A stretch of 64,000 nucleotides of DNA. It comes from an uncultured Clostridia bacterium. Its GTDB lineage: Bacteria; Bacillota; Clostridia; Christensenellales; UBA1242. The stretch lies in assembly GCA_947630405.1 (NCBI GenBank), contig CANRHL010000001.1:20822-84821 (forward strand), in the 5' to 3' direction. The notes under the pieces are model-generated. The model did not search any database. It was not told where the DNA came from and saw only the letters and a list, made by a program, of their open reading frames with translations. Positions 3,191 to 32,299 of this stretch are shown one piece after another. The first letter of the stretch is position 1. Each line of letters begins with the position of its first letter. Position numbers and translations under genes: made by a program.

Positions 3191-3219
3191 TTGACTTTTT
3201 CGAACAAATGTTCGATAAT
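3191..3219 (+). promoter_or_regulatory. promoter of the Com-like gene
   Basis: TTGACT (3191-3196), 17-nt spacer, GATAAT (3214-3219). Confidence 0.6.
3201..3214. promoter_or_regulatory. LexA (Cheo/SOS) box CGAACAAATGTTCG inside the promoter spacer
   Basis: Perfect CGAAC-N4-GTTCG palindrome. aaatgttcgataa is repeated at 3173-3185 and 3206-3218. Confidence 0.7.
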
Positions 3220-3318
3220 ATGAGTGATGATAGATATAAATATTCTTTAAGTTAGCCCCAGATAATGTAAAAGAAAAGAAAGTATTAAATGTCATCAAAC
3301 GCAAAAAGGAGGCGAAAA

Positions 3319-3516
3319 ATGCGTAAAGAATTTCGTTGCCCTTATTGTAATAAATTGGTGGGCATAACAAAAGAAGACGGAAAATCTATTGTAAAAGTGC
3401 TGCGGCGCGCACCAAGGAACAAATCTAACAATGAAACTATTTTCGAGAACAAATGTCCAAAGTGCAATAACCTAGTATATTTGCAATTTAGATTTTTACA
3501 AAACACAGGAACTTAA
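3319..3516 (+). CDS. small zinc-ribbon protein, Mu Com-like (RCPYCNKL ... KCPKCN)
   Basis: AAGGAGG RBS then ATG at 3319. Two CxxC pairs with the RCxxCNKL / KCPKC pattern I associate with Com-family proteins. Confidence 0.6.
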   Translation: MRKEFRCPYCNKLVGITKEDGKSIVKVLRRAPRNKSNNETIFENKCPKCNNLVYLQFRFLQNTGT

Positions 3517-3555
3517 AAAAGTTCATTTAGTTTAGGGGTCAAAGAATCCCATAGA

Positions 3556-3633
3556 GGCCATAATTAGAGCCCAACTGCTGTCATAGAACGGCAAATTAAA
3601 ACTTGTTTGGGAATTATGGTCTTTTTCTTTTTT
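3556..3633 (+). terminator. long-stem intrinsic terminator downstream of the Com-like gene
   Basis: ggccataatt (3556-3565) pairs with aattatggtc (3612-3621), with inner cccaa/ttggg, followed by tttttctttttt. Confidence 0.65.
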
Positions 3634-3810
3634 ATAAGACATAATTTGGCAAGATAAGTGGAATTTCTTAACTACAACACCTAGTAAAGGTGTTGTAAAA
3701 TTTTGGTGTAAGTTGTGGTAATTTACTCTCATTGAAAGAAAAAGGGGGAATTGCTATTAGACACCAACAAGAAATCATTATCTACCAATACTTTAATCTA
3801 TTTGAAAAGA

Positions 3811-3857
3811 CCTAATTTCAAATGGGGTTTACCCCGCCTTTTGAGATTAGGTTTTTT
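3811..3857 (+). terminator. strong intrinsic terminator within the ICE leader region
   Basis: 12-bp stem cctaatttcaaa / tttgagattagg enclosing gggg-ttta-cccc, followed by tttttt. Confidence 0.7.
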
Positions 3858-3895
3858 AATTGCCATATCCTAAAAAGTTTTTAAAAAAATTTTTT

Positions 3896-3920
3896 AATTG
3901 TAACAGGCATTGTTACAATT
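3896..3920. promoter_or_regulatory. perfect 10-bp inverted repeat (candidate operator) overlapping an extended -10
   Basis: aattgtaaca-ggcat-tgttacaatt. The right arm contains TGtTACAAT, upstream of the HTH gene. Confidence 0.5.
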
Positions 3921-3967
3921 AGCCCACTAAAATGTGGACTAGAAACTGATAAAAGGAGGTGATTGTA

Positions 3968-4306
3968 GTGCGAAGCAGATTTATACAAGACGCTATTCTT
4001 TCAATTCTGCAAGATGGCAAATTGCATAAAATGAAAGATTTGTGCGATGAACTTAATATCTGTCGAATGACGTGCGTAAGGCATATCAACGATTTGTCTT
4101 TGTACTACAATATCCAAACTTTTGTCGGTGGCAGCAAAGCAGGTGTAAGGTTGCTAGATAAGAAAATAGATATTACATATTTACAAGACAATGATCTGCA
4201 ACTCATTGTCGAGCAACTTGGGCGGTTGCAGAGCCCAAATCCAAATATCTCTAAATTTATTAGAAACCTTAACCGCTTTCTAAAAGGAGAGAAAAATGGA
4301 TTATGA
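3968..4306 (+). CDS. winged-helix/HTH DNA-binding regulator
   Basis: HKMKDLCDELNICRMTCVRHINDL HTH-like segment. GTG at 3968 sits 8 nt after AGGAGG; the track start at 3959 overlaps the RBS. Confidence 0.6.
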   Translation: MRSRFIQDAILSILQDGKLHKMKDLCDELNICRMTCVRHINDLSLYYNIQTFVGGSKAGVRLLDKKIDITYLQDNDLQLIVEQLGRLQSPNPNISKFIRNLNRFLKGEKNGL

Positions 4307-4805
4307 GAATTTAAACAATGAAACTCTAAACGATGATGACGAAATTGTGCTTATTGACTATTACGATAGAATACATCAGCAAATGATACACGGATTGCCC
4401 GTTACGAAAAAAGTTGCCAGATTTATGGAAAACAATAAAAAGAAAACTAGAAGAAAACAAAACGATTATGACTACTACACTAGGCCGCTAGAAAAATTTG
4501 ATGAAGAAGACCCAGACAAAATGCAATACTTTATTGATGAAAATTCGGACATTGAAAAGAATTTAGAATTGGCGGAACGAGAAAAATTGGAAGAATTGGA
4601 TAAAGAACACAAAACAACCATAATTGAAAACGCAATGATTGCCCTAACCCCAGAGCAGCAAGAAGTTGTGATTATGGCATACTACAAAAAAATGAGTTAT
4701 AGCGAAATTGCAAAAGAGTTGGGCATTAAAAAACCCTCCGTTTATGAACGAATGCACAACGCGGTGAAAAACATACGAAAATTTGTCGAAAATGGTCAAA
4801 ATTAA
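4296..4805 (+). CDS. sigma-70 region-4 type regulator (sigma-like HTH)
   Basis: C-terminal LTPEQQEVVIMAYYKKMSYSEIAKELGIKKPSVYERMHNAVKNIRKF. Confidence 0.7.
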   Translation: MDYENLNNETLNDDDEIVLIDYYDRIHQQMIHGLPVTKKVARFMENNKKKTRRKQNDYDYYTRPLEKFDEEDPDKMQYFIDENSDIEKNLELAEREKLEELDKEHKTTIIENAMIALTPEQQEVVIMAYYKKMSYSEIAKELGIKKPSVYERMHNAVKNIRKFVENGQN

Positions 4806-4956
4806 AAAATTTTCAACTTTTTTTCAAAAATTTTCTTAAAAATACCCTAACGATTTGCAATTTTATGTCCTCATAGATATAGAGGGGTCAAACAATTTTT
4901 GAAATTCTGGTTGGTGCGCACAACCAAAACTTTCAATAAAAATTTAAGGAGAAATA

Positions 4957-5397
4957 ATGAAAGAACATTACACAGTTAGAATTTATGACAAGCAACTGTC
5001 GGACAAAGTTGAAGGCCTATATAATAAATGTAAAGATTTATATTCTAGTCAAAATCCATTTTTAGTGGATTGCATTAGCAGGGGTGCGGAACTTATAGAA
5101 CACGATTTAGTTGGCGAGAATAAGAAAAACACAATTGCTTCCTTATATGATGAAATTCATTTAACTGTTAGGAAATTGGACAATCTTTTAAAACTTTGTG
5201 AAAAGAGTGCAAAAGAAACGATTGCCAACTTGTCAATCAATCAAAAACTTTTGTCTTGCAATTACAATATGCTTTTAGGATTGTCGGAAAACAACCCAAA
5301 ACCTAAAAACTTTATTGAAAATGGTATGTTTGATGATTTGCCAGAAAGATTAGGCGAATTATTGGAAGATATACTTAAACAAATTTTAGGGAAATGA
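4957..5397 (+). CDS. hypothetical protein, possible relaxosome accessory factor (by position only)
   Basis: Good RBS; its stop overlaps the relaxase start (ATGA at 5394-5397). Confidence 0.5.
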   Translation: MKEHYTVRIYDKQLSDKVEGLYNKCKDLYSSQNPFLVDCISRGAELIEHDLVGENKKNTIASLYDEIHLTVRKLDNLLKLCEKSAKETIANLSINQKLLSCNYNMLLGLSENNPKPKNFIENGMFDDLPERLGELLEDILKQILGK

Positions 5398-6584
5398 GTG
5401 TTCCTAATGTAAACTTTTTCATTGGATATGTGGATAGTTTAAAAGGGAAAAGCAGCGCAGATGAATATGTAAAGAATAATTTTGAAGCAAGACGATTTTA
5501 CAGCTCTGGTAAAGATTATGATTATGTTAAGTATGTAGCCACAGGTAGCAAAGAAAAACTTGATTATATTGCCTATTCTGGGAACAATGAGAAAAGCCAC
5601 GGAATATTTAACCCTAATGGGTTAATGTCGGCACAAGATATAAAAGAATTACGCAATAAATTAAGGAAAACTGCTAGTCCTATATGGCACGGTGTTATTT
5701 CGTTTACGGAAGATTTTGGAAATCAATTTTGCGACAATTATGAGAAAGCTTATGAGCTTATGAGAACTGAATTCCCTAAATTTTTTAAGGCGGCAGGACT
5801 AAACCCAGACAATATTGAGTGGTTTGCAGGTTTACACGAGAACACGGACAACAAGCATATACATTTTTCTTTCTTTGAAAAGACCCCTTTAAGAAAGAAA
5901 CAAAATAGTAAAAAATTATGCTATTCAAATGGATTTATAGTGCAAAAAGCAATAAATGATTTTAAAGTTAAGGTAGAATTGCGCCTTAAAAACTACACAA
6001 ACGATATTTCAATAGCAAGAAAAAGTATAACACGGACAACTGAAAAATTATTAAACACAGGAGATTATATGGAGAAATTAAAATCTCTAATCATTATTCT
6101 ACCCCGCAAAGGTAGAATGAGTTATGATAGCAAAAATATGCAAGAATATAGACCATATATAGATAGTATTATAAACACTATAATTAAAGCAAATAAGAAC
6201 TTAAAATACAAGTTTGACAATTTCTATGACCTATTGGGCAAAAGGGACAATCAAATTATTCAGGCATACACAAAATTAAAAATAGATTACACGGACAAAC
6301 TTATGCGAGATAAATGTATTAAAGACATTTATAGGCGTTTGGGCAACCTAGTTTTGTTTATGGCAAAAGAAATTCGAGCCGAGCAAGCAAAACTTGATAC
6401 CAACACAAGAAACCGCCTTTTACAAAAACGCATAGACAAGTTAAAGAGAAAAGCACTAATTAAAAAATGTATGCAATTAAATGACCTTGTTGACCAAGAA
6501 ATTATGAACGCATTTAAGGAATATTTGGACAAACTTGATGAAGCCAACTATAACCGATTAAAGGAAGAAGGGTTAATAGATTGA
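5394..6584 (+). CDS. conjugative relaxase (MobL/MOB-P-like, histidine triad)
   Basis: WHGVISF and LHENTDNKHIHFSF (HxxxxxxHxH metal motif); Tyr-rich N-terminus DYDYVKYV / LDYIAY. Confidence 0.7.
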   Translation: MSVPNVNFFIGYVDSLKGKSSADEYVKNNFEARRFYSSGKDYDYVKYVATGSKEKLDYIAYSGNNEKSHGIFNPNGLMSAQDIKELRNKLRKTASPIWHGVISFTEDFGNQFCDNYEKAYELMRTEFPKFFKAAGLNPDNIEWFAGLHENTDNKHIHFSFFEKTPLRKKQNSKKLCYSNGFIVQKAINDFKVKVELRLKNYTNDISIARKSITRTTEKLLNTGDYMEKLKSLIIILPRKGRMSYDSKNMQEYRPYIDSIINTIIKANKNLKYKFDNFYDLLGKRDNQIIQAYTKLKIDYTDKLMRDKCIKDIYRRLGNLVLFMAKEIRAEQAKLDTNTRNRLLQKRIDKLKRKALIKKCMQLNDLVDQEIMNAFKEYLDKLDEANYNRLKEEGLID

Positions 6585-8746
6585 AATTAGGTAAAAGGAT
6601 TATCTTAATTCTTATAACCTTATTTGCTTGTTATATATGTGGTTATTTATTAAATTTATTTGTTTCTAACAATTTTGTTTTTGAATTTAAAATATCTGTG
6701 GACTTAATGTTGGCAGGCAAAACCCTACTCTACACCTTTGAATTGTTTGCGGTATTTGCGGTTATTTACTTATTCATTTGGTTTAAAGGAATTGGCAAAA
6801 ACCCTAAAAAGATTTTGCAAGCAAATGAAAAGGATAAAGACATTTTCACAGGATTAGAACAAGCACATTTTCAAACAGATAAAGAAATTCAAAACAATTT
6901 TAGAACGATAGATTACGAAAATCTACCCAACGCAAAAATTGAAGGTATTGCAATTAAGACGGAAGAAACCAACAAAGGATACAAAGTTACATTTGCTAAC
7001 CCTGCCCACACTTTGATAATAGGAACAACGGGCTCTGGTAAAACAACCACCTTTATAAACCCAACCATACAAATATTGGCAAATACCTTTAATCAACCTT
7101 CTATGATTATTTCAGACCCAAAAGGGGAATTGTATGCGCTACACTCTAAAAGTTTGATAAAACGCGGATACGATGTAAGAATATTGGATTTAAGAAACCC
7201 TTATTGCTCATTAAGGTGGAATCCGTTAGAACACCCTTATGACCTATACCAAGAAATGCTAACTTTAAATGATAAAGTTATTTTGAACGAAGAAGAAGGT
7301 TATTTCATATTTGAAGGCAAGATTTATTACAGCGAAGAAGAAAAGAACGCTGCGGTGCAGGTGCGACAACAAGAAATCTTTGATGAAGTGTACGAAGATT
7401 TAAACGATATTTGTTCGGTGCTTTGCCCTATTAAAAATAAATCCGAGCCAATATGGGAAAGTGGTAGTAAAAACTTTATTTTGGCAATAGCACTTGCTAT
7501 GTTGGAAGATAGCGAAAACCCTAGTTTGGGTATGACAAGAGAAAAATTCAATTTCTACAACATAATGAAAATTGCCACTAACACGCAAAACGATTGTGAA
7601 GATTTAATGGCGTACTTTAAAAATAGAAGCCCAATTTCTAAAAGTGTTAGTTTGTCTAAACAAGTTTTAGACGCTAGTGATAAAACGCGCGGCTCATATC
7701 TATCTACAATCTTTGATAAATTGTCAATGTTTAGTGATATGAGTATTTGTTCGCTAACAAGTGCAAACGAAATAGATTTTAGCGAATTGCCAAATAAACC
7801 AACTGCCCTATTTTTGCAAATACCAGATGAAAAAGAAACACGCCATACACTTGCTGCTATGGTTATATTGCAAGCATATAAGGCACTTGTAGCAAAGGCA
7901 AACACCTATGCCGATTTAACTTTGCCGCGTAGTGTTTACTTTTTGTTAGACGAATTTGGTAACCTACCTAAAATTCACAAACTAGAACAAATGATTACGG
8001 TTGGCAGAAGCAGAAAAATATGGTTGGCGTTAGTTGTTCAATCTTATGCACAACTTGCAAAAGTTTATGATGACAAAACTGCCGACATTATAAAATCCAA
8101 CTGCAATATTCAAGTATTTATTGGTACAACTGACCTTAAAACAATAGAAGAATTTTCTAAAAAGTGTGGAAATTACTCTATTATGCAACGAAATGTAAGC
8201 TTTTCTTCTTCTAACGATAATGTTGGAAGTTCGGTAAGCATTAAGGAAAGACCACTAATCTACCCAACCGAATTGCAACAACTAAATAGCCCAGACAATA
8301 TGGGCAATGCAATAGTTAATGTATTTGGTTATCCACCAATTAAAAGCAAATATACACCAAGTTTTAAATGCAAACACTTCAACTTGGAAAAGACCAATCA
8401 ATTACTTTCGGAGGGCAAATATTTTAACGAAAAGAAAGTTTTATACAATATGCTAGACCGAAATGAGATTATCCTTTCAAATAAAGCAGGTGTGCCAATG
8501 CCAGATTTAGCACCATTTATTGAAAGTTTAATAATTCAAATTGAAAAACTAGATTTTGAAAGTTTAGGTTGCTTTGAATTAAAAATGGAAATGCTTAATG
8601 CGGTGGAAAAGAAAGATTTTAATAGATTAAGTAATATAGCAATTAAACTAGAAACCATTGCAAAAAACAGAAATAGCGAGGACTTTGCATTTGTTAAAAA
8701 CTTATGCGTAAAAGTTCAGCAGCTAAAAAGGTTGGCACGACAATGA
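6581..8746 (+). CDS. type IV coupling protein (VirD4/TraG family)
   Basis: N-terminal TM helices; Walker A GTTGSGKTT; Walker B YFLLDEFGNL; VVQSYAQL. Confidence 0.9.
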   Translation: MKLGKRIILILITLFACYICGYLLNLFVSNNFVFEFKISVDLMLAGKTLLYTFELFAVFAVIYLFIWFKGIGKNPKKILQANEKDKDIFTGLEQAHFQTDKEIQNNFRTIDYENLPNAKIEGIAIKTEETNKGYKVTFANPAHTLIIGTTGSGKTTTFINPTIQILANTFNQPSMIISDPKGELYALHSKSLIKRGYDVRILDLRNPYCSLRWNPLEHPYDLYQEMLTLNDKVILNEEEGYFIFEGKIYYSEEEKNAAVQVRQQEIFDEVYEDLNDICSVLCPIKNKSEPIWESGSKNFILAIALAMLEDSENPSLGMTREKFNFYNIMKIATNTQNDCEDLMAYFKNRSPISKSVSLSKQVLDASDKTRGSYLSTIFDKLSMFSDMSICSLTSANEIDFSELPNKPTALFLQIPDEKETRHTLAAMVILQAYKALVAKANTYADLTLPRSVYFLLDEFGNLPKIHKLEQMITVGRSRKIWLALVVQSYAQLAKVYDDKTADIIKSNCNIQVFIGTTDLKTIEEFSKKCGNYSIMQRNVSFSSSNDNVGSSVSIKERPLIYPTELQQLNSPDNMGNAIVNVFGYPPIKSKYTPSFKCKHFNLEKTNQLLSEGKYFNEKKVLYNMLDRNEIILSNKAGVPMPDLAPFIESLIIQIEKLDFESLGCFELKMEMLNAVEKKDFNRLSNIAIKLETIAKNRNSEDFAFVKNLCVKVQQLKRLARQ

Positions 8747-11700
8747 AAAAAACAAAATCTAAAAATATTTTAACAATTTTAATATTTTCTGTTTGCTTAT
8801 TCATTTCAATAGCACTTGCTTGTAGTGGATTGGTTAGCAGTGGCGGAAAATCTAATATGGGAGTTATAAGCCCATTTGTCGATGGCACTGTAATTATCCC
8901 AGATAATTCACTTGTGCATTGGGAATCCCCAGATTATAGCAATGCGAATTTAGAGCCAGACACCCCATATTCAAATGGTGTTTTAAGGCGGTATTTGTTT
9001 CTAGGAATTTACAATCAAGTAAGAAATGAAACCGTAAGCGGATTTCACTTCCCGCAATTTGTAAGATATTTCGAAGTGGCAAGAGTTGATGGTAGATACA
9101 TTTACGATGATGATGGTATTTTAGACACCAATTCTAGTGAAGAAGTTGTAAACTACCCTTCAATGCTTTATTCAACTGAAAGCACTTTGCCCGTTAAGAA
9201 AGACGCAGGCCCATTTTGGACAGACCATCAACCAAGTTTTAAAAACGGAGATTTGGAAGTAAACTTTTACTCCAACTCGACATCTTCGACATTCTATTAT
9301 GGCGTGCCGCGCGACCCTTCAAACAATTTTCACTCAATTTGCTACATAATAGATAAAGATTGTAAACCTTATATATCCAATCCAACAAAATTCAATGTAT
9401 ATCTAAACGCCACAGGGCAATACACCAACACTTTTTGGGGGAACACAAGTGGCAGTTATGGTATGAATTTTAATATGACCTATGACATTTCTATGGCAGC
9501 AAGAGATTGGAACAACTCGTTAAAGGCAAGTACGCCAAGCGGAACATATAAAGGCAAAACAATCTATTACTCACCGAAAGAATTTACTGCTATTGCAACA
9601 AACTTGAACAATTTATTGAAAATTAACGATGTTCAAATTGACCCGCTTTATGGAACTACTGTTGTGCCATTTAAAGATGGACACCACATAACCATAACCG
9701 ATGTTGGCATTACAAAGGTTGATTTGGAAAATGGCAGCGAGAACAACTACACTACCTATTATTGTATGATAGACAATAAATTGCCAGATGTTTCTTACAA
9801 CTATTCAAACACAAATGCCCTAGATTTAAGGAAAATAAGTTCAATCACAACTGAAAGCAGTGGTGCTAAAACACAAACAATCTATGAAGGCATTTTTAAA
9901 GACCAAGTACAAGTAAATTTTGGTGCGAACGAAGATGAAAGCCCAGAAACCGCCACCTACACTTTAAATGGCGAAACACACAACTTAACAAGCGGCACTT
10001 GGTTAAAACAGGAAGGCAGTTATGTTGTTACAATTAAAGATAGCGCAGGCAACACAACCATAAGCAAGTTTGATATAGATTGCACTAACCCATTTGCAAA
10101 CCTAAACCGAGTTAAAAATGATAATAACTATAAGGTTGCTAAATGGTATTTAACAACTATACCTAACGGATATAGCGGATATGGCACTTATTCGTTTTTA
10201 GAACGAGCAGACGCTTTAAATTACGCTTGCGAAATTGAAAAGCAAAATTTAGTTACAGAATATAATTTGGAACGAGTGGAAGATTTCGCCAACACGCACT
10301 TACTTGCAAAAGGAAATAGTGTTAAAGTTGGCAAGTATTGGTATTATAAATCAATAGACAATGACCAATTTTATGTTTATTACTTTGATGAGAACTCACT
10401 TAACCAAGCAATTCAACATTATGCTGAAAAGTTTGTTTCGGTGGAACATAAATATAATATCAATTCTTCATTAACACCAAATAACTATGGCAATATACTA
10501 GATAAAAGTATATATGACAATGTTGTTTCAAAAAATGGCATAAATGCTTATATGGGCAATAACTTTGTGTTTAGAACGGATAGCAATATGGAAAGTTATA
10601 AAATATATTGCGACTATGCCGAAGATAGCACCGAAGATTATAAGGAACTACAATACAACAAAGTTTTTTCAACCCAAGTTAATGGGTATGGACTTTACAA
10701 AATAAAGGAAATAGATTTTGTTGGACACGAAAGTTATTACTATCTATTTTTAGATAATCAGGCACCAATGCTAGACATTGAAGCAAAAATTTATGGCAAA
10801 GATAAGCTTATAAACCAATCTATATCCGTAAATGATATACCTAACAATGGCGAGCTTATCTATTATTATGAGAGTTTTAAAATAGCACAAGTTATAGAAG
10901 ATGATAAATGGTGGATTATGGAGATTAAAACACCAAAAGACACCGTTTTAAGATACACCTATTTAGATGAGTTGCCAAACTTTGGCAATCTCGGTGCAGG
11001 CGAATATTCAATTACAATAGCGGATAGAAATTCAAACAAATTTAATTTCAAAATATCCCTATTAGGAAAAGCACCAGAGGCAGTATTTCAAAACATAAAT
11101 GCCAACACTCAATTAAGGATAGATATTAAATGCAGCGAAGATTACAATTCTATAACCGAAATTAAGATTTATAGAAATGGAATTTGCTTAAATGCTGAAA
11201 ATGGATATGATGAATACCCTAATTTAGAAAATGATTTAATATTTATCAACCCATCTATCAAAACCTACACTTTTAACAAAGGCGGCACATACAAAGTTGA
11301 ATTGACCGACATATTTGGAAGAAGCATAACTTATGAATATAAGTTTGAAAAGGATTTGCCTGTTGGGGATTTAATTGGTGTTAAGCACAATGGCAAAACG
11401 AATAGCGAAGTTAGATTTACTTATAACTCATCAAAATATTATGTTGTTATAGAAAAGAATAGCGGTGTTTATACACCAGAAGAAAGCGAAAGTAACTTTA
11501 TCAAAACACTTATCTTTACGCCGAACGAAAATTTACAAGATTTTTATTCAATTAAGCTTATAGATAACACCGACCCAGAGAACTACAATATTTACAACTT
11601 TACAATCAAAACCATTAAACCTATCATCAATCTATTTGGAGTTGACCCTAATGGTACAACAGGCGGAAGTGTGTACGCACTATGGGATAGTGGCGAAGAA

Positions 11701-13119: not shown

Positions 13120-13158
13120 GAATTCTATTGATATTTTTAGTAAGCAGGATAAGAGTTA

Positions 13159-24300: not shown

Positions 24301-27095
24301 CATATAAGATTGCGGAACATTGCTTAAATTTGCAAACAATAAACATTTATGATGAAGTTGAAGATGGGGATAAAACTAGGCGTGTTTTAAATAAGGCGGA
24401 CACTATTGCAGCGAGAGAAAAACAACGAAAATTGGAACAAGAATTTAAGAATTGGATTTTTGATGACCCCGAACGAAGAAACGATTTAGTACAAAAATAC
24501 AATGAAACCTTTAACAATACACGATTGCAAAACTATAATGGGGATTATCTAACATTCCCAGAAATGAACCCGTGTATTGAACTTAAAAAACACCAAAAAG
24601 ATGCGGTAGAAAGAATAATAACAAGTGGCAACACTTTACTTCACCACGTGGTTGGTGCAGGCAAAACCTTTGAAATTGCCGCCGCTGCTATGAAATTGCG
24701 ACAATATGGTTTAGCACACAAACCTATGATAGTTGTGCCTAATCACTTGGTTATGCAATGGACACGAGAATTTAAGCACTTATACCCTAATGCTAATGTT
24801 TTAATGGCAACTAAAAAGGATTTAGAGAAAAACAATAGATTAAAGTTTGTTAGCCGAGTTGCCACAGGAGATTGGGATGCGGTGGTTATAGCTTCTAGCA
24901 GTTTTGAAAAAATACCTTTATCCAAAGAAAGGCAAGAAAAGAAAATAAATGAAGAACTTTTAGCAATTGAAACTGCTTTGTTAGAGGCAAAGGAAGAAAA
25001 CAACCGATTATCCATTAAAAATTTAGAACGTTCAAAGAAAAATAAAGAAGCGGTTTTAAAGAAACTGACCGATGGTAGCACAAAAGATAGTTTAATTAAG
25101 TTTGAAGATTTAGGTGTAGATTATTTGTTTGTTGATGAAGCACACAAATATAAGAACAAGTTTATATTCACAAAAATGAATAATGTGGCAGGCATTTCAA
25201 AGGCAATGTCATTAAGGGCAACCGACCTAGATATGAAATGTGAATATATAAACGATGTGCACCACTCCAACAAAGGTGTAGTGTTCGCCACAGGTACACC
25301 AATCTCAAACTCTATGGTGGAAATGTTTACAATGCAATCATATATGCAACGCCACGAATTGGAAGAAGCAGGCCTTAACTATTTTGACGCTTGGGCAGCA
25401 GCGTTTGGGGAAACTCAAACCGCACTTGAACTTGCACCAAGTGGCAATGGTTATAGAACTAAAACGAGATTTGCAAAGTTTACAAATTTGCCAGAACTTA
25501 TGAAAATGTATAGAAGCTTTGCTGATGTTAAAACAGCGGATATGTTGCATTTGCCAACACCGAAAGCAAACAAGATTGTTATAACCGCGAAACCATCACA
25601 AGACATTTTAAGGTTAAACGAAGTTATACAAGAACGCGCAGAAAAAATAAATGATGGAAATGTTTCGCCTAAAGAGGACAATATGCTAAAAATTACAAGT
25701 GATGGCAAAAAATTAGCACTAGACCCGCGCTGTTTTGATGAAACAAGCGAAGATGAAGAAGAAAATAAAGTTAACTTGTGTGTAAACAATGTTTTTAATA
25801 TATGGGAAAAGACCAAAGACAAACGCAGTACACAAGTTATTTTTTGTGATATGTCCACACCAAAATATGCTTTTAAAGATTATGTCCCAAAAGAGAATTT
25901 TGATATTTACAACGATATTAAAAGCAAATTGGTTGCAAAAGGCATACCAGAAAATGAAATTCGCTTTATACACGAAGCGAAAACTGACCTACAAAAACAA
26001 AATTTATTTGATGAAGTTTCTAACGGAAATGTTCGTGTTATTATTGGCTCTACTGAAAAATGCGGTGCAGGAACAAACATACAGGGCAAACTTATTGCCC
26101 TACACCATTTAGACACGCCTTATAGACCAAGTGATTTGCAACAACGAGAAGGCAGAATTGTAAGGCAAGGCAACTCTAATGATGAAGTGTATATTTACAC
26201 CTATGTAACCGAAAGAACATTTGATAGTTATTCTTATCAAATATTGGAAAACAAGCAAAAGTTTATTGCTCAAATTGACAATGGGGATTTAACCGTAAGG
26301 GAAGCAAGTGATATTGACGAAACAACACTCTCTTATGCCGAGATTAAAGCAATTACAACTGCCAATCCGAAGATTAAGCAAAAAATGGAATTGGAACAAG
26401 AATTGCAAAGATTGCACACCCTAGAAGCACAATATAGGAACAATAAATATACTTTGCAAGATAAGATTACAAAATTTTTGCCACAACGAATAGCAATTAC
26501 AAAGAACAACATTGAAAACTTAACTGCGGATATACCTTTGCGAAATGCAAATAAAAAAGCAGATTTTTTTATGCAACTAGGCAATAAAACTTATGATGAA
26601 CGAAAGGCAGCAGGCGAAATGCTTGTTAACGCAGTTAATTCTAACAAATACAACAATGTTGCAATAGGCAAAATTTGCGGATTTGAAATTGTCCCTTTGC
26701 CACGAGGGGCGCTTGTGGACAATAGACAAGTACAATTGGTTGGAAAAGGCAAATACACGGTGGATATTTCTACAAGTGATGTTGGTAGCATAACAAGAAT
26801 TGAAAACTTTTTATCTGGTATGGAAGATAAATTGAAAGATTATAAAGAACTAGAAATTGATTTGAACAACCAATTAAATTCTGCCAAGATAGAAGTTGAA
26901 AAACCTTTTGAATATGCCGAACAAATTAGTCAAATGACAAATGAACTTGCCGAACTAGACGCCGAGTTGGACTTAAATAAAAAGGAAGAGCCAATTGTTA
27001 CCGATGATGAAGAACTACAAAAAGAAAAAGAGCCAGAAATAGTGGAAGATGAAAACGAAGATTATGATGAAGAAACTGACGATATGGAGATGTAA
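21324..27095 (+). CDS. polyvalent protein: ArdC-N-like domain + N6-adenine DNA methyltransferase + SNF2/DEAD-box helicase
   Basis: ILEPAAGTGNF (SAM motif I), ITNVPFG (motif IV), VVGAGKTF (Walker A), FVDEAHKYKN (DEAH), QQREGRIVRQGN (helicase motif VI). Confidence 0.9.
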   Translation: MTEQAVANDLIENILDNTIYLANFFKFRVNNPAFNFAQAMQIITRNPHASICKSFDEWNALNRRIIRNSKALTFIDENNPSKKRYVFDIDQTYGVDYPPKTYPMDNHLVAEIDQINDIESENTTNNYYNLLDVINQFNAENGYTKENKTENQYLNRFIAIYLNATFVNSIKVPAEVDFEELDTNKKIDLCEEAEEIAKEITNSILQIRRENEKSKLQSNRESSTIRPIRYNGIELSKNNSTEQISILDDDGNFVRLFVEDTNSMQPNATEIVKEIPQEYETNIELYGEITPRTNELRDSGRIDNPQDNLQYLNYKLTEKDFEKIGGAKTKYKDNVAAIKLVRQLDEENRNPTQEEQAILAKYVGWGGIPQVFDENNENWQKEYAELKELLSTKQYELAKSSTLTAHFTSKTIIDGIYNALSNMGFTKGTILEPAAGTGNFIGLVPDSFDKTKISGVEIDEITGKIAKYLYPQSNIQITGFENTNFKDNQFDSVITNVPFGAYKVYDRDYDKFNFFIHDYFIAKSIDKIKPNGICAVITSKGTMDKLSSSFRKYVADRAELLGAIRLPNNAFKENAGTEVTADILFFKKRGTMIDSQDSWIYVGKNENDIPLNEYFIDHPEMVLGTMKQGASMYGGADETYCEADDRPLDIALSQAIANLPKEIYQAQVVVEEEKNEDVLPADYNIRNYCYSMKNDKVYMRVDDQMILQNIAKTNIDRFRRMIEIRDKVRFILQRQIDNCSDDELLHEQTNLNTLYDNFVKKYGYLNSKHNRNLFRQDADYPLLISLENYDEHNKTATKTDIFSKRTIRIHERVKTANDAQEALQISKNELGKVDLRYIEQLTGLDYDTVVENLKNSIFKNPLAETFNTEEDIKYVGWETADEYLSGNVKQKLRIAKRAAQDNPMYNVNVEALEETQPEDIPASDISVRLGATWIDKKYYEQFLGEKFKVNNYYRDEIKVEYNRFDGSWAISAPSWIKSNIESTSIYGTNRMNAYKIAEHCLNLQTINIYDEVEDGDKTRRVLNKADTIAAREKQRKLEQEFKNWIFDDPERRNDLVQKYNETFNNTRLQNYNGDYLTFPEMNPCIELKKHQKDAVERIITSGNTLLHHVVGAGKTFEIAAAAMKLRQYGLAHKPMIVVPNHLVMQWTREFKHLYPNANVLMATKKDLEKNNRLKFVSRVATGDWDAVVIASSSFEKIPLSKERQEKKINEELLAIETALLEAKEENNRLSIKNLERSKKNKEAVLKKLTDGSTKDSLIKFEDLGVDYLFVDEAHKYKNKFIFTKMNNVAGISKAMSLRATDLDMKCEYINDVHHSNKGVVFATGTPISNSMVEMFTMQSYMQRHELEEAGLNYFDAWAAAFGETQTALELAPSGNGYRTKTRFAKFTNLPELMKMYRSFADVKTADMLHLPTPKANKIVITAKPSQDILRLNEVIQERAEKINDGNVSPKEDNMLKITSDGKKLALDPRCFDETSEDEEENKVNLCVNNVFNIWEKTKDKRSTQVIFCDMSTPKYAFKDYVPKENFDIYNDIKSKLVAKGIPENEIRFIHEAKTDLQKQNLFDEVSNGNVRVIIGSTEKCGAGTNIQGKLIALHHLDTPYRPSDLQQREGRIVRQGNSNDEVYIYTYVTERTFDSYSYQILENKQKFIAQIDNGDLTVREASDIDETTLSYAEIKAITTANPKIKQKMELEQELQRLHTLEAQYRNNKYTLQDKITKFLPQRIAITKNNIENLTADIPLRNANKKADFFMQLGNKTYDERKAAGEMLVNAVNSNKYNNVAIGKICGFEIVPLPRGALVDNRQVQLVGKGKYTVDISTSDVGSITRIENFLSGMEDKLKDYKELEIDLNNQLNSAKIEVEKPFEYAEQISQMTNELAELDAELDLNKKEEPIVTDDEELQKEKEPEIVEDENEDYDEETDDMEM

Positions 27096-27098
27096 AAA

Positions 27099-27428
27099 AT
27101 GAATTATGACGAATACGAAAACCTTGTAAATGTGGTTGACCAAGAAGTTTTAGAGTATAGAAGAAATATGGTGCAGCATAGTGGACTTTATGTTTTTGAC
27201 CAAGCCAAGATTATTTATGCTTTTAACTTTATTGCGGATTGTTTAAGGGATTTTGACATTGCCGAGAAAATAGACAAGAAATTGCTACCTAGAAGAAATA
27301 TAGTTGCAAACCTAACCGATTTTTACCTTTTAAACCACACTGAAATTAGCGAAACTGATTTTGTGGATATGTTTGACTATCAAAAGGAAGATTTGTTAGA
27401 CATTTTTAGCGAGCATACCGAAATGTGA
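27099..27428 (+). CDS. hypothetical protein (109 aa)
   Basis: Coupled to neighbours; no family recognised with confidence. Confidence 0.45.
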   Translation: MNYDEYENLVNVVDQEVLEYRRNMVQHSGLYVFDQAKIIYAFNFIADCLRDFDIAEKIDKKLLPRRNIVANLTDFYLLNHTEISETDFVDMFDYQKEDLLDIFSEHTEM

Positions 27429-27435
27429 GGGTTAT

Positions 27436-28404
27436 GTGGAACAATACGAAATTGATAATCTCTTAACCAATTTACAAAATTATTTAGAAAAACGCGGATA
27501 TGATACAAGCAGGTTTATGAATTGCATAAACCCCAACCATACCGACAACAAACCATCAATGAAATATTTTAAAGATAATAAAGTTTATTGTTTTGGTTGT
27601 GGTGCAAGTTATGACTTGTTTGATTGCATTTCTATTTTAGAAAATGTAAACAACAAAGAAGCATTCAAACGAGCAATAGAATATTATGGTGGCAGTGCCA
27701 CGAAATTAAAACCAATTACACAACAAACAAAAAGGAAGGAAGATTATGTTCAAAAAACTGAAAGAAGCTATGAAAAAGCTTTTCAAATTTGGAAAGAAAA
27801 CCTCAAAAGACAACAACGAGCCAGACAATACTTAACTGATAGAGGCATTACATTAAAAACCATACAAAAATTTAATCTAGGTTTTAACACTTTTAACTTT
27901 AAAGATTATTCATTTAGCGGAATAATCATACCAATAAATTCTAGTTGCTTTACTGCCCGCAACATAGATAAAACTAGCGAAAACCGATATTACAAAACAA
28001 AAGGCAGCCATATAGAAATTTTTAATGCCAACGCACTAACTAATGACCTACCCTATTGTGTTATAACAGAAGGCGAATTTGATTGTTTAAGTTTTGATAG
28101 TGTTGGCGTTAATTCTATTGCTCTTTGTAGTGTTAGCAATACAAATAAGTTTATAAATTGTGGAAAATCTAAAACAAAAACTTACATATTGGCACTAGAC
28201 AATGATGAGGCAGGACAAAAAGCAACTTCTACCCTAATTGATTATTTTAAAGAAAACAATATCAATTATTGCGTGTTTGATAATTGCGGATACAAAGATG
28301 CTAACCAAGCACTTGTAGAAGATAAGGAATTATTTAGTAAATCCATAAAAGACATAGTTAAAGGCATAGAAAAGGAAAAAGAAAAACAAAACTTTGAAAT
28401 GTAA
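27436..28404 (+). CDS. DNA primase (CHC2 zinc finger + Toprim)
   Basis: CINPNHTDNKPSMKYF...CFGCG zinc finger; ITEGEFDCLS and ALDNDEAGQKA Toprim motifs. Confidence 0.85.
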   Translation: MEQYEIDNLLTNLQNYLEKRGYDTSRFMNCINPNHTDNKPSMKYFKDNKVYCFGCGASYDLFDCISILENVNNKEAFKRAIEYYGGSATKLKPITQQTKRKEDYVQKTERSYEKAFQIWKENLKRQQRARQYLTDRGITLKTIQKFNLGFNTFNFKDYSFSGIIIPINSSCFTARNIDKTSENRYYKTKGSHIEIFNANALTNDLPYCVITEGEFDCLSFDSVGVNSIALCSVSNTNKFINCGKSKTKTYILALDNDEAGQKATSTLIDYFKENNINYCVFDNCGYKDANQALVEDKELFSKSIKDIVKGIEKEKEKQNFEM

Positions 28405-28413
28405 GGAGAACAA

Positions 28414-28806
28414 ATGGATTTTATTGATGAATATTTAGACCACGAATTTGCTTCTAGTGTTGGAAGAACACCAGAATATGCAACATTTGAAAGGAAATAC
28501 AAGAACTATCTTAAAACACACTTGCCAAGTGGATATTCAATCCACGAATTTATTAAAAGCCATTTTGAATTTAGTTGTGTTATTAAATCCGATGACAATA
28601 AATTCTTTTATTTAAGCATACCAGATGTTAGATATGTTGTAAATGGGTGGAAAGAAAAGGTGCTTATTAGAACTATGGCGCACGATAAAGATTGGACAGG
28701 CGGACAAAATTATTTTATTGATATTACAAACTTAAAAGAAAGTTTGCAGGCACTTCACGCAAAAGGCCATATTTCTTTTAGGCGAGAATATGAAAGCGAG
28801 ATGTAA
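28414..28806 (+). CDS. hypothetical protein (130 aa)
   Basis: AAGGAG RBS; no family recognised. Confidence 0.45.
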   Translation: MDFIDEYLDHEFASSVGRTPEYATFERKYKNYLKTHLPSGYSIHEFIKSHFEFSCVIKSDDNKFFYLSIPDVRYVVNGWKEKVLIRTMAHDKDWTGGQNYFIDITNLKESLQALHAKGHISFRREYESEM

Positions 28807-28812
28807 GAATTT

Positions 28813-29925
28813 ATGCAACAACTATCAATTTTTGATGAGTTGGGGGATGAATTTAAAGAATATAAAGCAATAAAAAGCAACGATTGGTTATGGAGTTTTA
28901 AAGATTATCCACAAAAAAATGGATTAAAAGTGTTTAGTTGTTTTGCAGGTGGTGGTGGCTCTACTATGGGATATAAACTTGCAGGTTATGATGTTATAGG
29001 TTGTTTAGAGATAGACAAAAGAATGAATAACATTTACAAGTTAAACCACAATCCAAAATACAATTTTCTTATGGATATACGAGAATTTAACAATACACCT
29101 AACAACGAATTGCCAAAAGAATTGTTTGACTTGGATATTTTAGATGGCAGCCCACCCTGCACAACATTTTCAATTTGCGGAAAACGAGAAGCAACTTGGG
29201 GAAAATTGAAAAAGTTTAAAGAGGGACAAAAAGAACAAACACTTGATGACCTACCCTTCATTTTCATTGAAACGGTAGACAAATTAAAACCTAAATTTGT
29301 TGTTATGGAAAATGTGGAAGGATTAACACAGGGCAATGCTTGGAGATATGTTCAAAGAATTTATGCTAGTTTTAAAAAAATTGGATATAAAGTTAAGCAT
29401 TGGTTGTTAAAGGGCGAATTTATGGGCATACCACAAGCACGCCATAGAATATTCTTCATAGCAACAAAATTAGATATTGATTTAGACAAAATCAATATGG
29501 CATTTAACTATAAACCAATCTTATTTAAAGAGATAAAAAGTAAAAAAGGACTACCCTTACCCAAATGGGTTGAAAAACTTGCAGAGAACGCTAAATATGG
29601 CGAGAGAAATTTAGAAAATGCAAGTTTAAGATTGCGAGGCAAGGCGTCTTTTTTTAATTATTGCTTTGTGTATGATGACAAAATTTCGCCAACTCTCACA
29701 GCAAGAGCAAATTTAATTAGGTGGGACACTAAAAACTTTTTATCCAAGCAAGATATGTTAAGCGTTTCGACATTCCCACAAGATTTTAAATTTATAAATG
29801 AAGCACCAGACCAAATGGGATTTGTTTGTGGAATGAGTGTTCCGCCAATAATGATAAAGCGAATTGCGGAAAGATTATACCCATATTTAATAGACAACGA
29901 ATTAAGGAGTGAAAATGGACAATAG
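28813..29925 (+). CDS. DNA (cytosine-5)-methyltransferase, orphan (no adjacent endonuclease seen)
   Basis: FSCFAGGGGS (motif I), GSPPCTTFS (motif IV), ENVEGL (VI), QARHRIFF (VIII), GMSVPP (X). Confidence 0.9.
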   Translation: MQQLSIFDELGDEFKEYKAIKSNDWLWSFKDYPQKNGLKVFSCFAGGGGSTMGYKLAGYDVIGCLEIDKRMNNIYKLNHNPKYNFLMDIREFNNTPNNELPKELFDLDILDGSPPCTTFSICGKREATWGKLKKFKEGQKEQTLDDLPFIFIETVDKLKPKFVVMENVEGLTQGNAWRYVQRIYASFKKIGYKVKHWLLKGEFMGIPQARHRIFFIATKLDIDLDKINMAFNYKPILFKEIKSKKGLPLPKWVEKLAENAKYGERNLENASLRLRGKASFFNYCFVYDDKISPTLTARANLIRWDTKNFLSKQDMLSVSTFPQDFKFINEAPDQMGFVCGMSVPPIMIKRIAERLYPYLIDNELRSENGQ

Positions 29926-30562
29926 AACATTAACTGCAAAAGAAATAAAGAAATTTTTTGAAAATTGTAAAGGCCATAAATTTGAATGTTTTTATAAAAT
30001 GGTGTTTGCTTATAGATTGTCGCGCTATGAAATGTTAAATTTGCAATGGGAAGATATAAATTTTGACAATGATACAATTACAATCTACCCCGTTAAGTAT
30101 GTTATAGACCACAAGCGAGCAAAGAACTATTGGCAAAAATATAAAAATACTGAATTTGGTAGAACTTACCCTTTGTTGCCAGATATTAGAAATTTGCTTA
30201 TCAAACGAATGGAAAAGCAAATGGAAAATTCTAAAAATGAAAATTTCAATGCGGACAACACAAAATATGTTTGTATAGATAAAAATGGCAAACTTATCAA
30301 TGCGAACACTTTAAGCAGAAATTTAAAATACATAACCAAGAAAGCAAAACTACCAACTATTTTAATTTCGGACTTGAAACATAGTGCGGAAGATTTTTTC
30401 TTTAAGAAAACAACAAGCATTGACTTTTATAGGTGTTGGACACGCGCCGACATTTTGCAAAGACAAGAAAATGTTTATGGCGATTTTAATTTATTAAGAG
30501 GCAAAAGATTTGTTAAAGAGTTAGACAATTTAATTTCAAACGAGAGAGAACTCGAAATGTGA
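29915..30562 (+). CDS. tyrosine-recombinase catalytic-domain paralog with degenerate active site and no N-terminal DNA-binding domains
   Basis: Aligns by eye to the C-terminal half of the adjacent integrase. Arg I (YRLSRYE) and a Tyr (NVYGDF) are kept, but HDLRHS is replaced by SDLKHS. Confidence 0.55.
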   Translation: MDNRTLTAKEIKKFFENCKGHKFECFYKMVFAYRLSRYEMLNLQWEDINFDNDTITIYPVKYVIDHKRAKNYWQKYKNTEFGRTYPLLPDIRNLLIKRMEKQMENSKNENFNADNTKYVCIDKNGKLINANTLSRNLKYITKKAKLPTILISDLKHSAEDFFFKKTTSIDFYRCWTRADILQRQENVYGDFNLLRGKRFVKELDNLISNERELEM

Positions 30563-30569
30563 GGTTGCT

Positions 30570-30779
30570 ATGAAAAGTTATGAATTATGCAAATGTATGT
30601 TTACTGAATATCCAGATTGCGTTGGTGTGCAAGAACTTATGCAAATGTTGGGTATAAAGAAAACAAAAACTTATGAATTGCTACAAAGTGGAGAAATAAA
30701 AGCAAAAAAGATTGGAAAAGATTATAAAATTTCAAAAGTAAATGTTATTGCCTACATAATTGGAGAAGAACAATTATGA
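30570..30779 (+). CDS. xis: excisionase-family HTH DNA-binding protein
   Basis: 69 aa, VGVQELMQMLGIKKTKTYELLQSGEIKAKKIG; its stop overlaps the int start (ATGA). Confidence 0.75.
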   Translation: MKSYELCKCMFTEYPDCVGVQELMQMLGIKKTKTYELLQSGEIKAKKIGKDYKISKVNVIAYIIGEEQL

Positions 30780-32035
30780 CAGGTAGATTGGCATTAAAAA
30801 ATGGTTTATGGTATGCAGTTTTAAGTTATAAAGATGAAAACAACCAATTTAAGCAAAAATGGATAAATACTCATTTAAAAGAACGCGGAAATAAAAAAGA
30901 AGCTCAAAAGATTTTAAATGAACAACTGCAAACATTTAATCCACACGAAGAAAAACCAAAACAAAATGAAACTAAAACCGAAGATATACTTTTAGTTGAC
31001 TATGTCGAAAAAGTTTTTAATGAAAAAAGCAGCAGTTTAAGCCCTATAACAGCTAGTGCTTATGAATCAATAATTAAAATTATCAAATTATATTTCAAAG
31101 ATGATTTGCTAAAAGATATAACCTATAAAGATATTGAAAGGTTTTATGATTATTTAAGATATGAACGCAAAGTTGGCAACACCACTGTAAAACATTACGC
31201 CAATGTTCTATCCCCTGCTTTTAGACAAGCATATAGAGATGATTTAATCCCTAAAAACCCTTTTGAATTTCTACCTAAAATTAAAAGAGATAAGCGGAGT
31301 ATTGAATTTTACAATAAAAATGAATTGGAAAAACTTTTTCAATATACCGACAACACTGATATTGGTTTGATAGTTAGAATAGCAGCATATTATGGATTTA
31401 GGCGAAGTGAAGCACTTGGACTTAAATGGAAAGCAATAGATTTTGACGCAAAAACCATAAAGGTTGAACACAAAGTTGTAAAAGTTAAGAAAATATTATA
31501 TAGGCAAAATAAACTTAAAACGGAAGCGAGCTCACGAACTTTGCCTTTAATACCAGAAATTGAACAATTATTACTCCAACGAAAGAAAGAAATTGAAAAA
31601 AACAAGACATTGTATGGAAAATCTTACAACGATAAATACAATGAATATATTTTTGTAAATGATATTGGTGATTTGATGTTGCCAGACCACATTACGCAAA
31701 AATTTAACAGAATATTAAAGCAAAACAAGTTAAAACATATTCGTTTTCACGATTTAAGACATAGTTGTGCGAGTTTACTTGTTGCGAACAATGTTCCTAT
31801 GAAAAACATACAAGAGTGGTTAGGACACGCAAATTTCAATACAACCGCCGATGTATATTCACATTTGGACTTTTCTGGGAAAGTTAAATCTGCTAATATT
31901 ATAGAAGCTCAATTGTCGGTGGGTGTTGAAGATGAAAAAGAGTTAGAAAGGGAAATTGAAGAACTAAAAAAGAAAATTCGTGAGAAAGAACAATTAAAAA
32001 AAGCTTTAAAACTTAAAGACAATGAAATGAACTAG
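30776..32035 (+). CDS. int: site-specific tyrosine integrase
   Basis: N-terminal arm-binding type domain (LWYAVLSYKDENNQFKQKWI); YGFRRSEALGLKW, KTEASSRTLPL, FHDLRHSCAS, LGHANFNTTADVYSH. Confidence 0.95.
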   Translation: MTGRLALKNGLWYAVLSYKDENNQFKQKWINTHLKERGNKKEAQKILNEQLQTFNPHEEKPKQNETKTEDILLVDYVEKVFNEKSSSLSPITASAYESIIKIIKLYFKDDLLKDITYKDIERFYDYLRYERKVGNTTVKHYANVLSPAFRQAYRDDLIPKNPFEFLPKIKRDKRSIEFYNKNELEKLFQYTDNTDIGLIVRIAAYYGFRRSEALGLKWKAIDFDAKTIKVEHKVVKVKKILYRQNKLKTEASSRTLPLIPEIEQLLLQRKKEIEKNKTLYGKSYNDKYNEYIFVNDIGDLMLPDHITQKFNRILKQNKLKHIRFHDLRHSCASLLVANNVPMKNIQEWLGHANFNTTADVYSHLDFSGKVKSANIIEAQLSVGVEDEKELEREIEELKKKIREKEQLKKALKLKDNEMN

Positions 32036-32077
32036 GCACTAATCTGCTTGGTTTTTTTATTATACGATACAAAACGG

Positions 32078-32106
32078 TTGCAAAAAACAAACCACGATGC
32101 TATACT
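32078..32106 (+). promoter_or_regulatory. outward-facing promoter near the ICE right end
   Basis: TTGCAA (32078-32083), 17-nt spacer ending in TGc, TATACT (32101-32106). Confidence 0.45.
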
Positions 32107-32119
32107 GATTTTTGCAAGA

Positions 32120-32152
32120 ATTTGTTGTGAATTTGTGAAAAATTTGTGAAAA
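32120..32152 (+). repeat. three tandem 11-nt repeats (atttgttgtga / atttgtgaaaa / atttgtgaaaa), candidate recombinase arm-type sites
   Basis: Direct reading; one-helical-turn phasing, about 90 bp beyond the int stop. Confidence 0.45.
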
Positions 32153-32266
32153 AGCACATTTTTCGGCCATTTGGGGGTTAAATTTTGTTCATTTTTTAAA
32201 GCAAAAACTCAAACCCCCAATCAACATAGAATTGATACGCACAATGGCAACTGTTTGTGGTGGAGA

Positions 32267-32299
32267 ACAAAAAAAGTTTCAGCAATAATTTGCTGAAAC
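32267..32299 (-). terminator. intrinsic terminator downstream of tRNA-Arg
   Basis: gtttcagca / tgctgaaac stem, with an A-run on the plus strand (T-run on the minus strand). Confidence 0.65.

Follow-up and report, generated by a model that had tools for sequence, protein, structure and literature searches.

The window analysed here is a 64,000-nt stretch of DNA (C1:20822-84821 of contig C1; positions without a contig name are those of the window), and it contains part of an integrative and conjugative element (ICE) which occupies 47,076 bp between two copies of a 9-bp core, GTTCCGTAG, in a native tRNA-Arg(ACG) gene that has been split. We put the probability of this architecture, with the ends resolved to the base, at about 85%. 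The host is a gut Clostridia metagenome-assembled genome (MAG) of about 1 Mb, similar to Candidatus Onthoplasma. A preliminary description of the window had recognised an ICE with transfer, maintenance and recombination modules, as our profile searches do, but had given it a size of about 29 kb and other boundaries. According to our analysis the host tRNA gene is not repaired by the element, which instead brings a complete tRNA-Arg(ACG) gene of its own.

The split tRNA-Arg gene and the ends of the element

The split was found by BLAST of an intact congeneric tRNA-Arg(ACG) gene, from genome G054, against the whole assembly. The 5' 41 nt of the native gene lie at C1:53275-53315 (window 32454-32494), where 40 of 41 positions match the G054 gene, and the 3' 45 nt lie on the same strand at C1:6163-6207, 14.6 kb upstream of the window. 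The native gene is thus broken in its anticodon loop into a 5' half and a distant 3' half, the former being visible in the window as a second, partial tRNA-like stretch just past the complete tRNA-Arg gene (32446-32497). The two pieces overlap by CTACGGAAC, which is GTTCCGTAG on the plus strand, and the insert can be sized at 47,076 bp because both halves carry these 9 bp. The two attachment (att) sites are the sole positions of the 9-mer in the initial 60 kb of C1. The 7-mer TCCGTAG is present once more, where the complete tRNA-Arg gene encodes its anticodon loop; the sequences on both sides of the 9 bp diverge between the att sites. When the flanks were joined by script a tRNA-Arg(ACG) was called by ARAGORN, and all 77 of its 77 positions agree with the unbroken genes found in L113 and in G058, which is a Candidatus Onthoplasma MAG. 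The features at and near the ends are as follows.

C1:6199-6207, outside the window: attL core, the copy of GTTCCGTAG at the left end
1..32462, plus strand: the part of the ICE within the window, as defined by the split native tRNA-Arg halves with their common 9-mer
32130..32152, plus strand: tandem AATTTGTGAAA repeats, candidate arm-type integrase (Int) sites
32271..32304, minus strand: terminator of the element-borne tRNA-Arg gene
32321..32397, minus strand: element-borne complete tRNA-Arg(ACG) gene (Rfam, 59.3 bits), the only ACG copy found in the assembly
32398..32453, minus strand: element spacer with a T-arm-like hairpin, GGGG-N10-CCCC, which does not complete a tRNA
32454..32462, no strand assigned: attR core GTTCCGTAG, comprising the tRNA-Arg(ACG) anticodon loop and two stem bases
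32463..32494, minus strand: remainder of the orphaned 5' half of the native tRNA-Arg(ACG) gene, from the BLAST match and the joining of flanks
32531..32559, minus strand: host promoter-like site TTTACA-17-TACAAT, TG-extended, upstream of the native tRNA (a consensus match only)

The element begins at C1:6208, directly after the attL core and 14,613 bp upstream of window base 1. From these junctions the attB site is predicted to read ...CCTTTG-GTTCCGTAG-ACCAACGC... and the attP site ...CTGCTCACAA-GTTCCGTAG-TTTTCACAAAAAACG.... An inverted copy of the integrase-proximal repeat TTTGTGAAAA abuts the attL core, and the left arm beside attL bears motifs that are conserved across related elements. Two further observations concern possible binding sites. 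The sequence CCCCTATAAAATAGG lies at 32300-32314, by the 3' end of the element tRNA, with an inverted copy at 13192-13206 upstream of a pilin-like gene, and a related sequence, CCTATTTTATAG, is found 16 bp from the attL core (C1:6223-6234); these may represent a common protein-binding site or may be due to chance.

The preliminary description had placed the left boundary between 3125 and 3950, where no att core, tRNA fragment or arm motif is present, and the right boundary between the integrase stop and the terminator of the tRNA-Arg gene. A minus-strand terminator and a tRNA-Arg gene are both present (32271-32304 and 32321-32397, with anticodon ACG), but the junction lies 57 bp past this complete gene, inside the second, broken one. 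An ICE of about 29 kb inserted at a non-tRNA site beside an intact host tRNA-Arg gene would agree with the usual picture for tRNA-targeting elements in so far as the integrase gene adjoins a complete tRNA-Arg. This layout is refuted by the split tRNA, and we attach next to no weight to it. The complete tRNA is unlike the genus-type gene, while a broken gene of the genus type is found just beyond it with its other half 47 kb away, and the 3' flank of the complete tRNA (a terminator and a CCYTAAAATARGG hairpin) is conserved among elements and not among host loci. Nor does any repeat join the proposed boundary zones: when 32036-32520 was compared exhaustively with all of the window by short-word BLAST, it yielded only AT-rich chance matches of 10-15 bp, with none to 1300-4000, in keeping with the earlier failure to find a convincing att repeat in the window by eye. 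The AT-rich or structural target that had been considered gives way to the tRNA itself, which is targeted in the anticodon loop.

Comparison with an element-free relative, as had been proposed as a check, supports these ends. A MAG contig, L113, has the flanks adjacent and lacks the element: a homologue of the left flank (C1:5345-5885) is followed by a homologue of the right-flank zinc-ribbon gene (C1:53389-54023) and then by an intact tRNA-Arg(ACG) gene. The 455-aa gene of the left flank is a core gene (57 of 61 congeners), with a tRNA-Arg gene nearby in several of them, and the orientation of the tRNA relative to this gene varies, being as here in G068 and opposite in G058 and L113. An exact match to the anticodon-spanning 47-mer of the native-type gene occurs in 29 species representatives, L113 among them, which are all MAGs labelled as uncultured gut Clostridia, as Candidatus Onthoplasma or as Christensenellaceae. 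The junctions themselves recur in assemblies of three other ENA samples, in that L090 reproduces attR and L121 attL; L089 stops within the tRNA-Arg gene of the element. Synteny based on MscS (G010, G059 and G023) is not conserved beside the tRNA and gave no empty site. In G054 (L031, G054:C13, 9402-10003) a tryptophanyl-tRNA synthetase (TrpRS) gene, 77% identical to one carried by the ICE, adjoins tRNA-Arg(ACG), and the contig ends inside the gene. The 3' flank of this tRNA is of the element type, consisting of a terminator and a CCCTAAAATA-type hairpin. This arrangement was rejected as an empty site because of that flank and because the chromosomal locus is a different one.

Several points weigh against our interpretation. 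L113 is from another species, and its segment of about 0.9 kb with the tRNA and zinc-ribbon genes is inverted relative to this genome (L113 4783-5807 against window 32454-33153). No empty site from the same species was found in a metagenome scan (0 hits), and a second scan, aimed at the left junction, likewise returned 0 hits. Neither of the flank proteins was matched when looked up by exact sequence, nor was the KilA-N protein of the element. With an assembly estimated at about 92% completeness, in which only 23 tRNA genes were detected, the ACG gene of the element is the only copy in the assembly and not necessarily in the cell. The role given below to the replacement tRNA is read from gene structure only, excision and the circular attP form are predictions, and part of the 47 kb may postdate the formation of the ICE, as the mosaic nature of its cargo would allow.

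Fate of the host tRNA and a family of related elements

Past the core, attR runs into element sequence, with the result that the anticodon stem of the host tRNA is destroyed and its acceptor strand is absent. No tRNA was called by ARAGORN or Rfam at the attR junction (32446-32497) or at attL. The host gene is not rebuilt because only 9 bp are common to the two sides. The complete tRNA-Arg(ACG) gene of the element differs from the native gene in both halves, and is situated 57 bp inside attR, oriented as the broken gene is, between the orphaned 5' half and its own terminator. This shared orientation, together with the promoter-like site upstream of the orphaned 5' half, suggests that integration places the element tRNA behind the promoter of the host tRNA. 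It would then be expressed and functional, and could replace the lost gene. A second promoter-like sequence, TTGTAA-17-TATAAT, is found on the minus strand at C1:6343-6371 (L029 4522-4550), about 135 bp inside attL and pointing outward across it, and TGTATAAT of its -10 region is conserved in two related elements, those of G118 and G088. It is possible, if speculative, that in the circular form this promoter would read across attP towards the replacement tRNA.

The junctions suggest how these events might take place. The tyrosine integrase would act on the 9-bp attP core, GTTCCGTAG, and on its exact match in the host tRNA-Arg(ACG) gene, at the anticodon loop; recombination of the two would leave the 3' half at attL (C1:6163-6207) and the 5' half at attR (32454-32494), and the complete tRNA-Arg(ACG) of the element, now behind the host promoter, would stand in for the gene that is lost. 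Precise excision by Int and the excisionase (Xis) would be expected to restore the host gene, and transfer would presumably proceed via a MobL relaxase, a type IV coupling protein (T4CP) and a type IV secretion system (T4SS) of the kind seen in Mollicutes ICEs.

Comparison with related elements indicates that this arrangement is not peculiar to the present ICE. Homologues of the integrase at 54-62% identity occur in about a dozen genomes from other genera of the same family. At least seven elements (G093, G190, G088, G153, G215, G118 and G152), whose integrases are 51-61% identical, had enough flanking sequence and a tRNA-Arg gene just downstream of the integrase gene, and each has the layout of the ICE. 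Past the integrase gene comes a stretch of about 300 bp that contains AATTCGTGACA-type repeats in tandem; then come a terminator, a CCYTAAAATARGG hairpin of small size, the complete tRNA-Arg gene, a spacer of 35-100 nt, the core and finally a different 5' half. G127 (integrase 54% identical) has the same parts with the tRNA 1.85 kb from the integrase gene. The anticodon that is carried always matches that of the broken target, ACG going with GTTCCGTAG and TCG with GTTCCGAAG, and displaced 3' halves were located at the far end of the elements of G118 (16 kb), G088 (12.4 kb) and G127 (11.3 kb). Sequence conservation between the elements extends to both arms. The small relatives are mobilizable, with orthologues of the MobL relaxase (39% identical), of a truncated integrase paralogue (41%; both figures for the integrative and mobilizable element, IME, of G118) and of the integrase, and the related IMEs hold their cargo between attL and the relaxase gene, as does the ICE. 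In the 16-kb element of G118 (L062, G118:C5:16001-32000, 510-8044) this cargo includes a HipA kinase, an OLD-family TOPRIM nuclease with a UvrD helicase (a Gabija-like pair), a GmrSD/HNH nuclease, an EcoRI-type methylase and a second integrase.

Less closely related integrases (37-41% identical) adjoin a complete tRNA-Lys(CTT) or tRNA-Ser(TGA) gene in G201 (L048), G142 (L054) and G292 (L053), with the matching orphaned 5' halves 36-208 nt beyond the complete tRNA, and in G142 a VirB4 of the ICE type (83% identical) is encoded on the same contig. Past the complete gene, two stacked tRNA-Arg 5' halves are present in G088 (L038 760-1000) and in G127 (L066 1180-1430), and in G058 (L087 1290-1330) the intact gene is preceded by one additional 5' half. 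These surplus halves are scars left by repeated integration at the same anticodon-loop core. A core confined to the anticodon region could also allow such elements to cross between genera, because the rest of the tRNA need not match. We suggest, as a tentative generalisation that could well be wrong, that an integrase clade (37-62% identical) in this family of gut Clostridia with genomes of about 1 Mb breaks the host tRNA and brings its own at Arg(ACG), Arg(TCG), Lys(CTT) and Ser(TGA), and is steadily replacing the single-copy tRNA genes of its hosts, and that in this ICE the habit is joined to a kit for translation, made up of a TrpRS without Trp, a ThrRS with one Thr, tRNA-Trp and leader-peptide switches, which may sustain translation when a synthetase is inhibited or a tRNA attacked.

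Gene content, cargo and the unity of the element

All of the large open reading frames (ORFs) between 3289 and 32035 are on the plus strand, which bears out the co-orientation reported for the genes from 3319 to 32035, and the start/stop overlaps ascribed to them are present (ATGA at 5394, 8743 and 30776, TTGA at 6581). The host reads TGA as stop, the ORFs being intact under translation table 11. The genes of the conjugation, maintenance and recombination modules are listed below.

3959..4805, plus strand: two regulators, a 115-aa protein and a 169-aa sigma-70 region-4 protein (profile searches)
4957..6584, plus strand: 146-aa accessory protein and MobL/MobP-type relaxase of 396 aa (PF18555, 111.6 bits; MobP2/P3 NCBIfam matches)
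6581..8746, plus strand: T4CP, VirD4-like, CD1115 family (T4SS-DNA_transf, 177.9 bits; conju_CD1115, 286.9 bits with a cut-off of 250)
8743..13119, plus strand: large surface, adhesin-like protein of 1458 aa (weak Ig-like matches; signal-peptide-like N-terminus)
13328..18136, plus strand: T4SS core, consisting of an Mbov_0395-type pilin-like protein, a 172-aa protein, an Mbov_0396/MMCAP2_0566 polytopic VirB6-like transmembrane protein and an Mbov_0397-type VirB4 ATPase
18145..21310, plus strand: 313-aa protein of unknown function and two BspA-type leucine-rich repeat proteins
21324..27095, plus strand: 1923-aa methyltransferase/SNF2-helicase protein
27436..29925, plus strand: Toprim/CHC2 primase, 130-aa protein and 5-methylcytosine (m5C) DNA methyltransferase
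29909..30562, plus strand: integrase paralogue truncated to its catalytic half, which related elements also have in conserved form (41% identity with that of the G118 IME)
30570..30779, plus strand: Xis (HTH_17)
30776..32035, plus strand: tyrosine integrase, 419 aa, with catalytic R210, K, H325-x-x-R328, H351 and Y361 all conserved

The catalytic residues of the integrase are invariant among ten homologues, and this, together with the modules confirmed by profile searches, establishes the presence of a conjugative element. The Mbov_0395 and Mbov_0396/MMCAP2_0566 families score above their cut-offs; the VirB4_plasma model reaches 580 bits against a cut-off of 590. With a relaxase, a T4CP, VirB4 and membrane components of the T4SS, and an integrase with direct-repeat ends at a chromosomal target, the element is of the ICE type. 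A VirB4 homologue, 44-49% identical to that of the ICE (15458-18136), is found in 241 of 251 genomes of the family, and a second VirB4 copy is present in this genome; being nearly universal, this T4SS-like ATPase looks like a core gene of the lineage. VirB4 proteins of the ICE type (62-83% identical) occur in only 11 genomes, of other genera.

That the 47-kb element is now a fixed remnant which no longer excises, and which is retained for its working tRNA-Arg(ACG), appears to us unlikely. In favour of such a remnant, excision is a prediction here, the only near-identical integrase genes come from contigs that are short (L090 among them extends to the same attR junction), and no second host species with this exact ICE was found. 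The transfer and recombination genes, however, are all intact and translationally coupled, the two cores are identical, and the distribution of the ICE-type VirB4 among those 11 genomes suggests a lineage that is active.

Everything from attL to the regulators is cargo, in which the accessory synthetase genes have leader-peptide attenuators. Whether the Com-like gene and the threonyl-tRNA synthetase (ThrRS)-like gene belong to the element had been left open in the preliminary description, and their position between the element ends, which they share with a tRNA-Trp gene and a TrpRS gene, settles that all of these are cargo. The features within the window are:

39..71, plus strand: leader peptide MFNSFIWWRW with three Trp codons and downstream hairpins, preceding the cargo TrpRS gene
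228..1217, plus strand: cargo TrpRS, 329 aa with 0 Trp (TIGR00233, 349 bits); a second copy, the native trpS being on C16
1241..1314, plus strand: cargo tRNA-Trp(CCA); a second copy, the native one being on C25
1384..1440, plus strand: leader peptide MKNALVLQLNITTTTVSK with four Thr codons, followed by twin hairpins
1676..3124, plus strand: cargo ThrRS-like synthetase of 482 aa that lacks an N-terminal editing region; a second copy beside the native thrS of C24
3201..3214, no strand assigned: LexA-type box CGAACAAATGTTCG in the exact Gram-positive form, between the -35 and -10 of the promoter of the Com-like gene
3319..3516, plus strand: Com-like zinc-ribbon protein, 65 aa (weak zinc-ribbon matches only)

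Farther upstream, the 14.6 kb outside the window encode TfoX_N-like, KilA-N, HIT and YpsA proteins, a phosphodiesterase, four GNAT acetyltransferases, a methyltransferase, a protein resembling the C-terminal domain of the RNA polymerase alpha subunit, an ABC exporter and an APH(2'')-like kinase; matches of the resistance type in this region are all far under the family cut-offs. Apart from the two tRNAs, no T-box or other Rfam RNA family was detected in the element. The host encodes LexA (C25, 204.5 bits), and SOS control is suggested by the position of the LexA box ahead of the regulatory genes.

The cargo TrpRS is 43-49% identical to genus-type TrpRSs (49% to the copy on C16), and among 60 congeners no close homologue was found except the 77% identical fragment in G054. 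The ThrRS-like protein has a single Thr in 482 aa, compared with 5.9% Thr in the other proteins of the ICE; for the native enzymes, the part of TrpRS that was checked has 2 Trp in 329 aa and a fragment of ThrRS has 11 Thr in 330 aa. It is plausible that TrpRS, ThrRS and tRNA-Trp could form a back-up or inhibitor-resistant kit for translation. Among the 60 congeners the ThrRS-like gene occurs only in G023, where the cassette with its leader (1325-3128) is 93% identical (L030, G023:C15, 4109-5911) and has another chromosomal context; there, along with a 175-aa ORF, it lies between two core genes that are adjacent on C18 of the present genome. Since the cassette is found by itself in G023 the cargo is a mosaic, and it is the self-moving nature of this cassette that raises the possibility, noted above, of some cargo being younger than the ICE.

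The mosaic could also be read as the product of two elements, an ICE of about 29 kb (regulators to integrase) and an older, unrelated island of about 18 kb at the same tRNA, whose internal att site has been lost and which would comprise the KilA-N, GNAT, ABC exporter, TrpRS, tRNA-Trp and ThrRS genes. The accessory nature of the left part and the separate occurrence of the ThrRS cassette in another genome would be in line with this, as would the existence of small elements of 11-16 kb with the same type of integrase and the evidence for serial integration at the target that the stacked 5' halves provide (G088, G127 and G058). We nevertheless consider a two-element origin improbable. Between the element ends neither a third core nor any tRNA fragment or arm motif is present, only one integrase gene is functional, the attL arm has the conserved motifs of the family and the inverted integrase-proximal repeat, and related IMEs hold cargo in the same place, from attL to the relaxase gene. 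The absence of a third core, the single functional integrase and the like placement of cargo in the IMEs lead us to regard the 47 kb as one element with accreted cargo.

Relation to known systems and significance

In tRNA-dependent lysogeny, described for actinobacteriophages (Fionnbharth K4, Cluster L and others), integration takes place at a core of about 10 bp, no tRNA is rebuilt and a phage tRNA complements the loss; the Lactobacillus johnsonii prophage Lj965 was named as a likely case, and the behaviour may be wider among phages (Guerrero-Bustamante & Hatfull, mBio 2024, PMC10865867). The ICE resembles these phages in the use of a tyrosine integrase at a host tRNA gene, in the length of the core (9 bp as against about 10 bp), in the failure to rebuild the tRNA at the junction and in the putative arm-type sites that flank the core. 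It differs from them in being conjugative, with a relaxase, a T4CP and a T4SS, and in having relatives that are mobilizable elements and not phages. Its host belongs to a gut Clostridia lineage with reduced genomes, and its replacement tRNA lies directly by the attP core and so comes to be behind the promoter of the host tRNA on integration. By its sequence the ICE has the traits of tRNA-dependent integration, that is, a short core, no rebuilt tRNA and a matching tRNA of its own; a need for this tRNA in survival is only hinted at by the lone ACG copy. Among the papers listed by a literature search on this and related terms, judged by title and abstract, none describes tRNA-dependent integration in a conjugative element.

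Islands of the type found by Islander restore the tRNA in line via its 3' part, with an identity block of 30-45 bp (PMC4383910). The tyrosine integrase, the site in the anticodon loop of a tRNA gene, the displaced fragment at the far end and the integrase gene at one end are features in common with these islands, whereas here no more than 9 bp are identical, the break in the gene persists and the element supplies an entire tRNA gene separately. As the split gene is not restored, the ICE is not a classical tRNA-restoring island. With the ICEs of Mycoplasma it shares a pilin-like protein, a polytopic transmembrane protein and VirB4, which match the Mbov_0395, 0396 and 0397 and MMCAP2_0565 and 0566 NCBIfam families, but it differs from them in its site-specific tyrosine recombinase with Xis and in the presence of a MobL relaxase. 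No DDE transposase is found among its annotated ORFs, and on account of this and the use of a tyrosine integrase it is not a Mycoplasma ICE. The cargo, too, has a counterpart. Vecchione and Sello, in the Journal of Bacteriology in 2010, reportedly described trpRS1 of Streptomyces coelicolor as an auxiliary synthetase gene controlled by an attenuator. In both cases a second TrpRS gene stands behind a short leader rich in Trp codons and terminator hairpins; the TrpRS gene here differs in being cargo of an ICE and in being paired with tRNA-Trp and with a ThrRS gene that has a Thr-codon leader.

The annotation of this region changes accordingly in that the element is 60% larger than had been proposed, a tRNA-Arg gene with the look of a host gene belongs to mobile DNA, and the cargo takes in a tRNA-Trp and two synthetases. 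Standard island finders that seek a tRNA identity block of 30-45 bp would miss such elements or mis-delimit them, as happened by eye in the preliminary description. The ICE and its mobilizable relatives extend tRNA-dependent integration, which has been shown experimentally only in actinobacteriophages, to uncultured gut Clostridia, in which the habit spans at least four tRNA identities. The hosts have genomes of about 1 Mb and few tRNA genes, and it may now be mobile DNA on which they rely to decode CGN codons.

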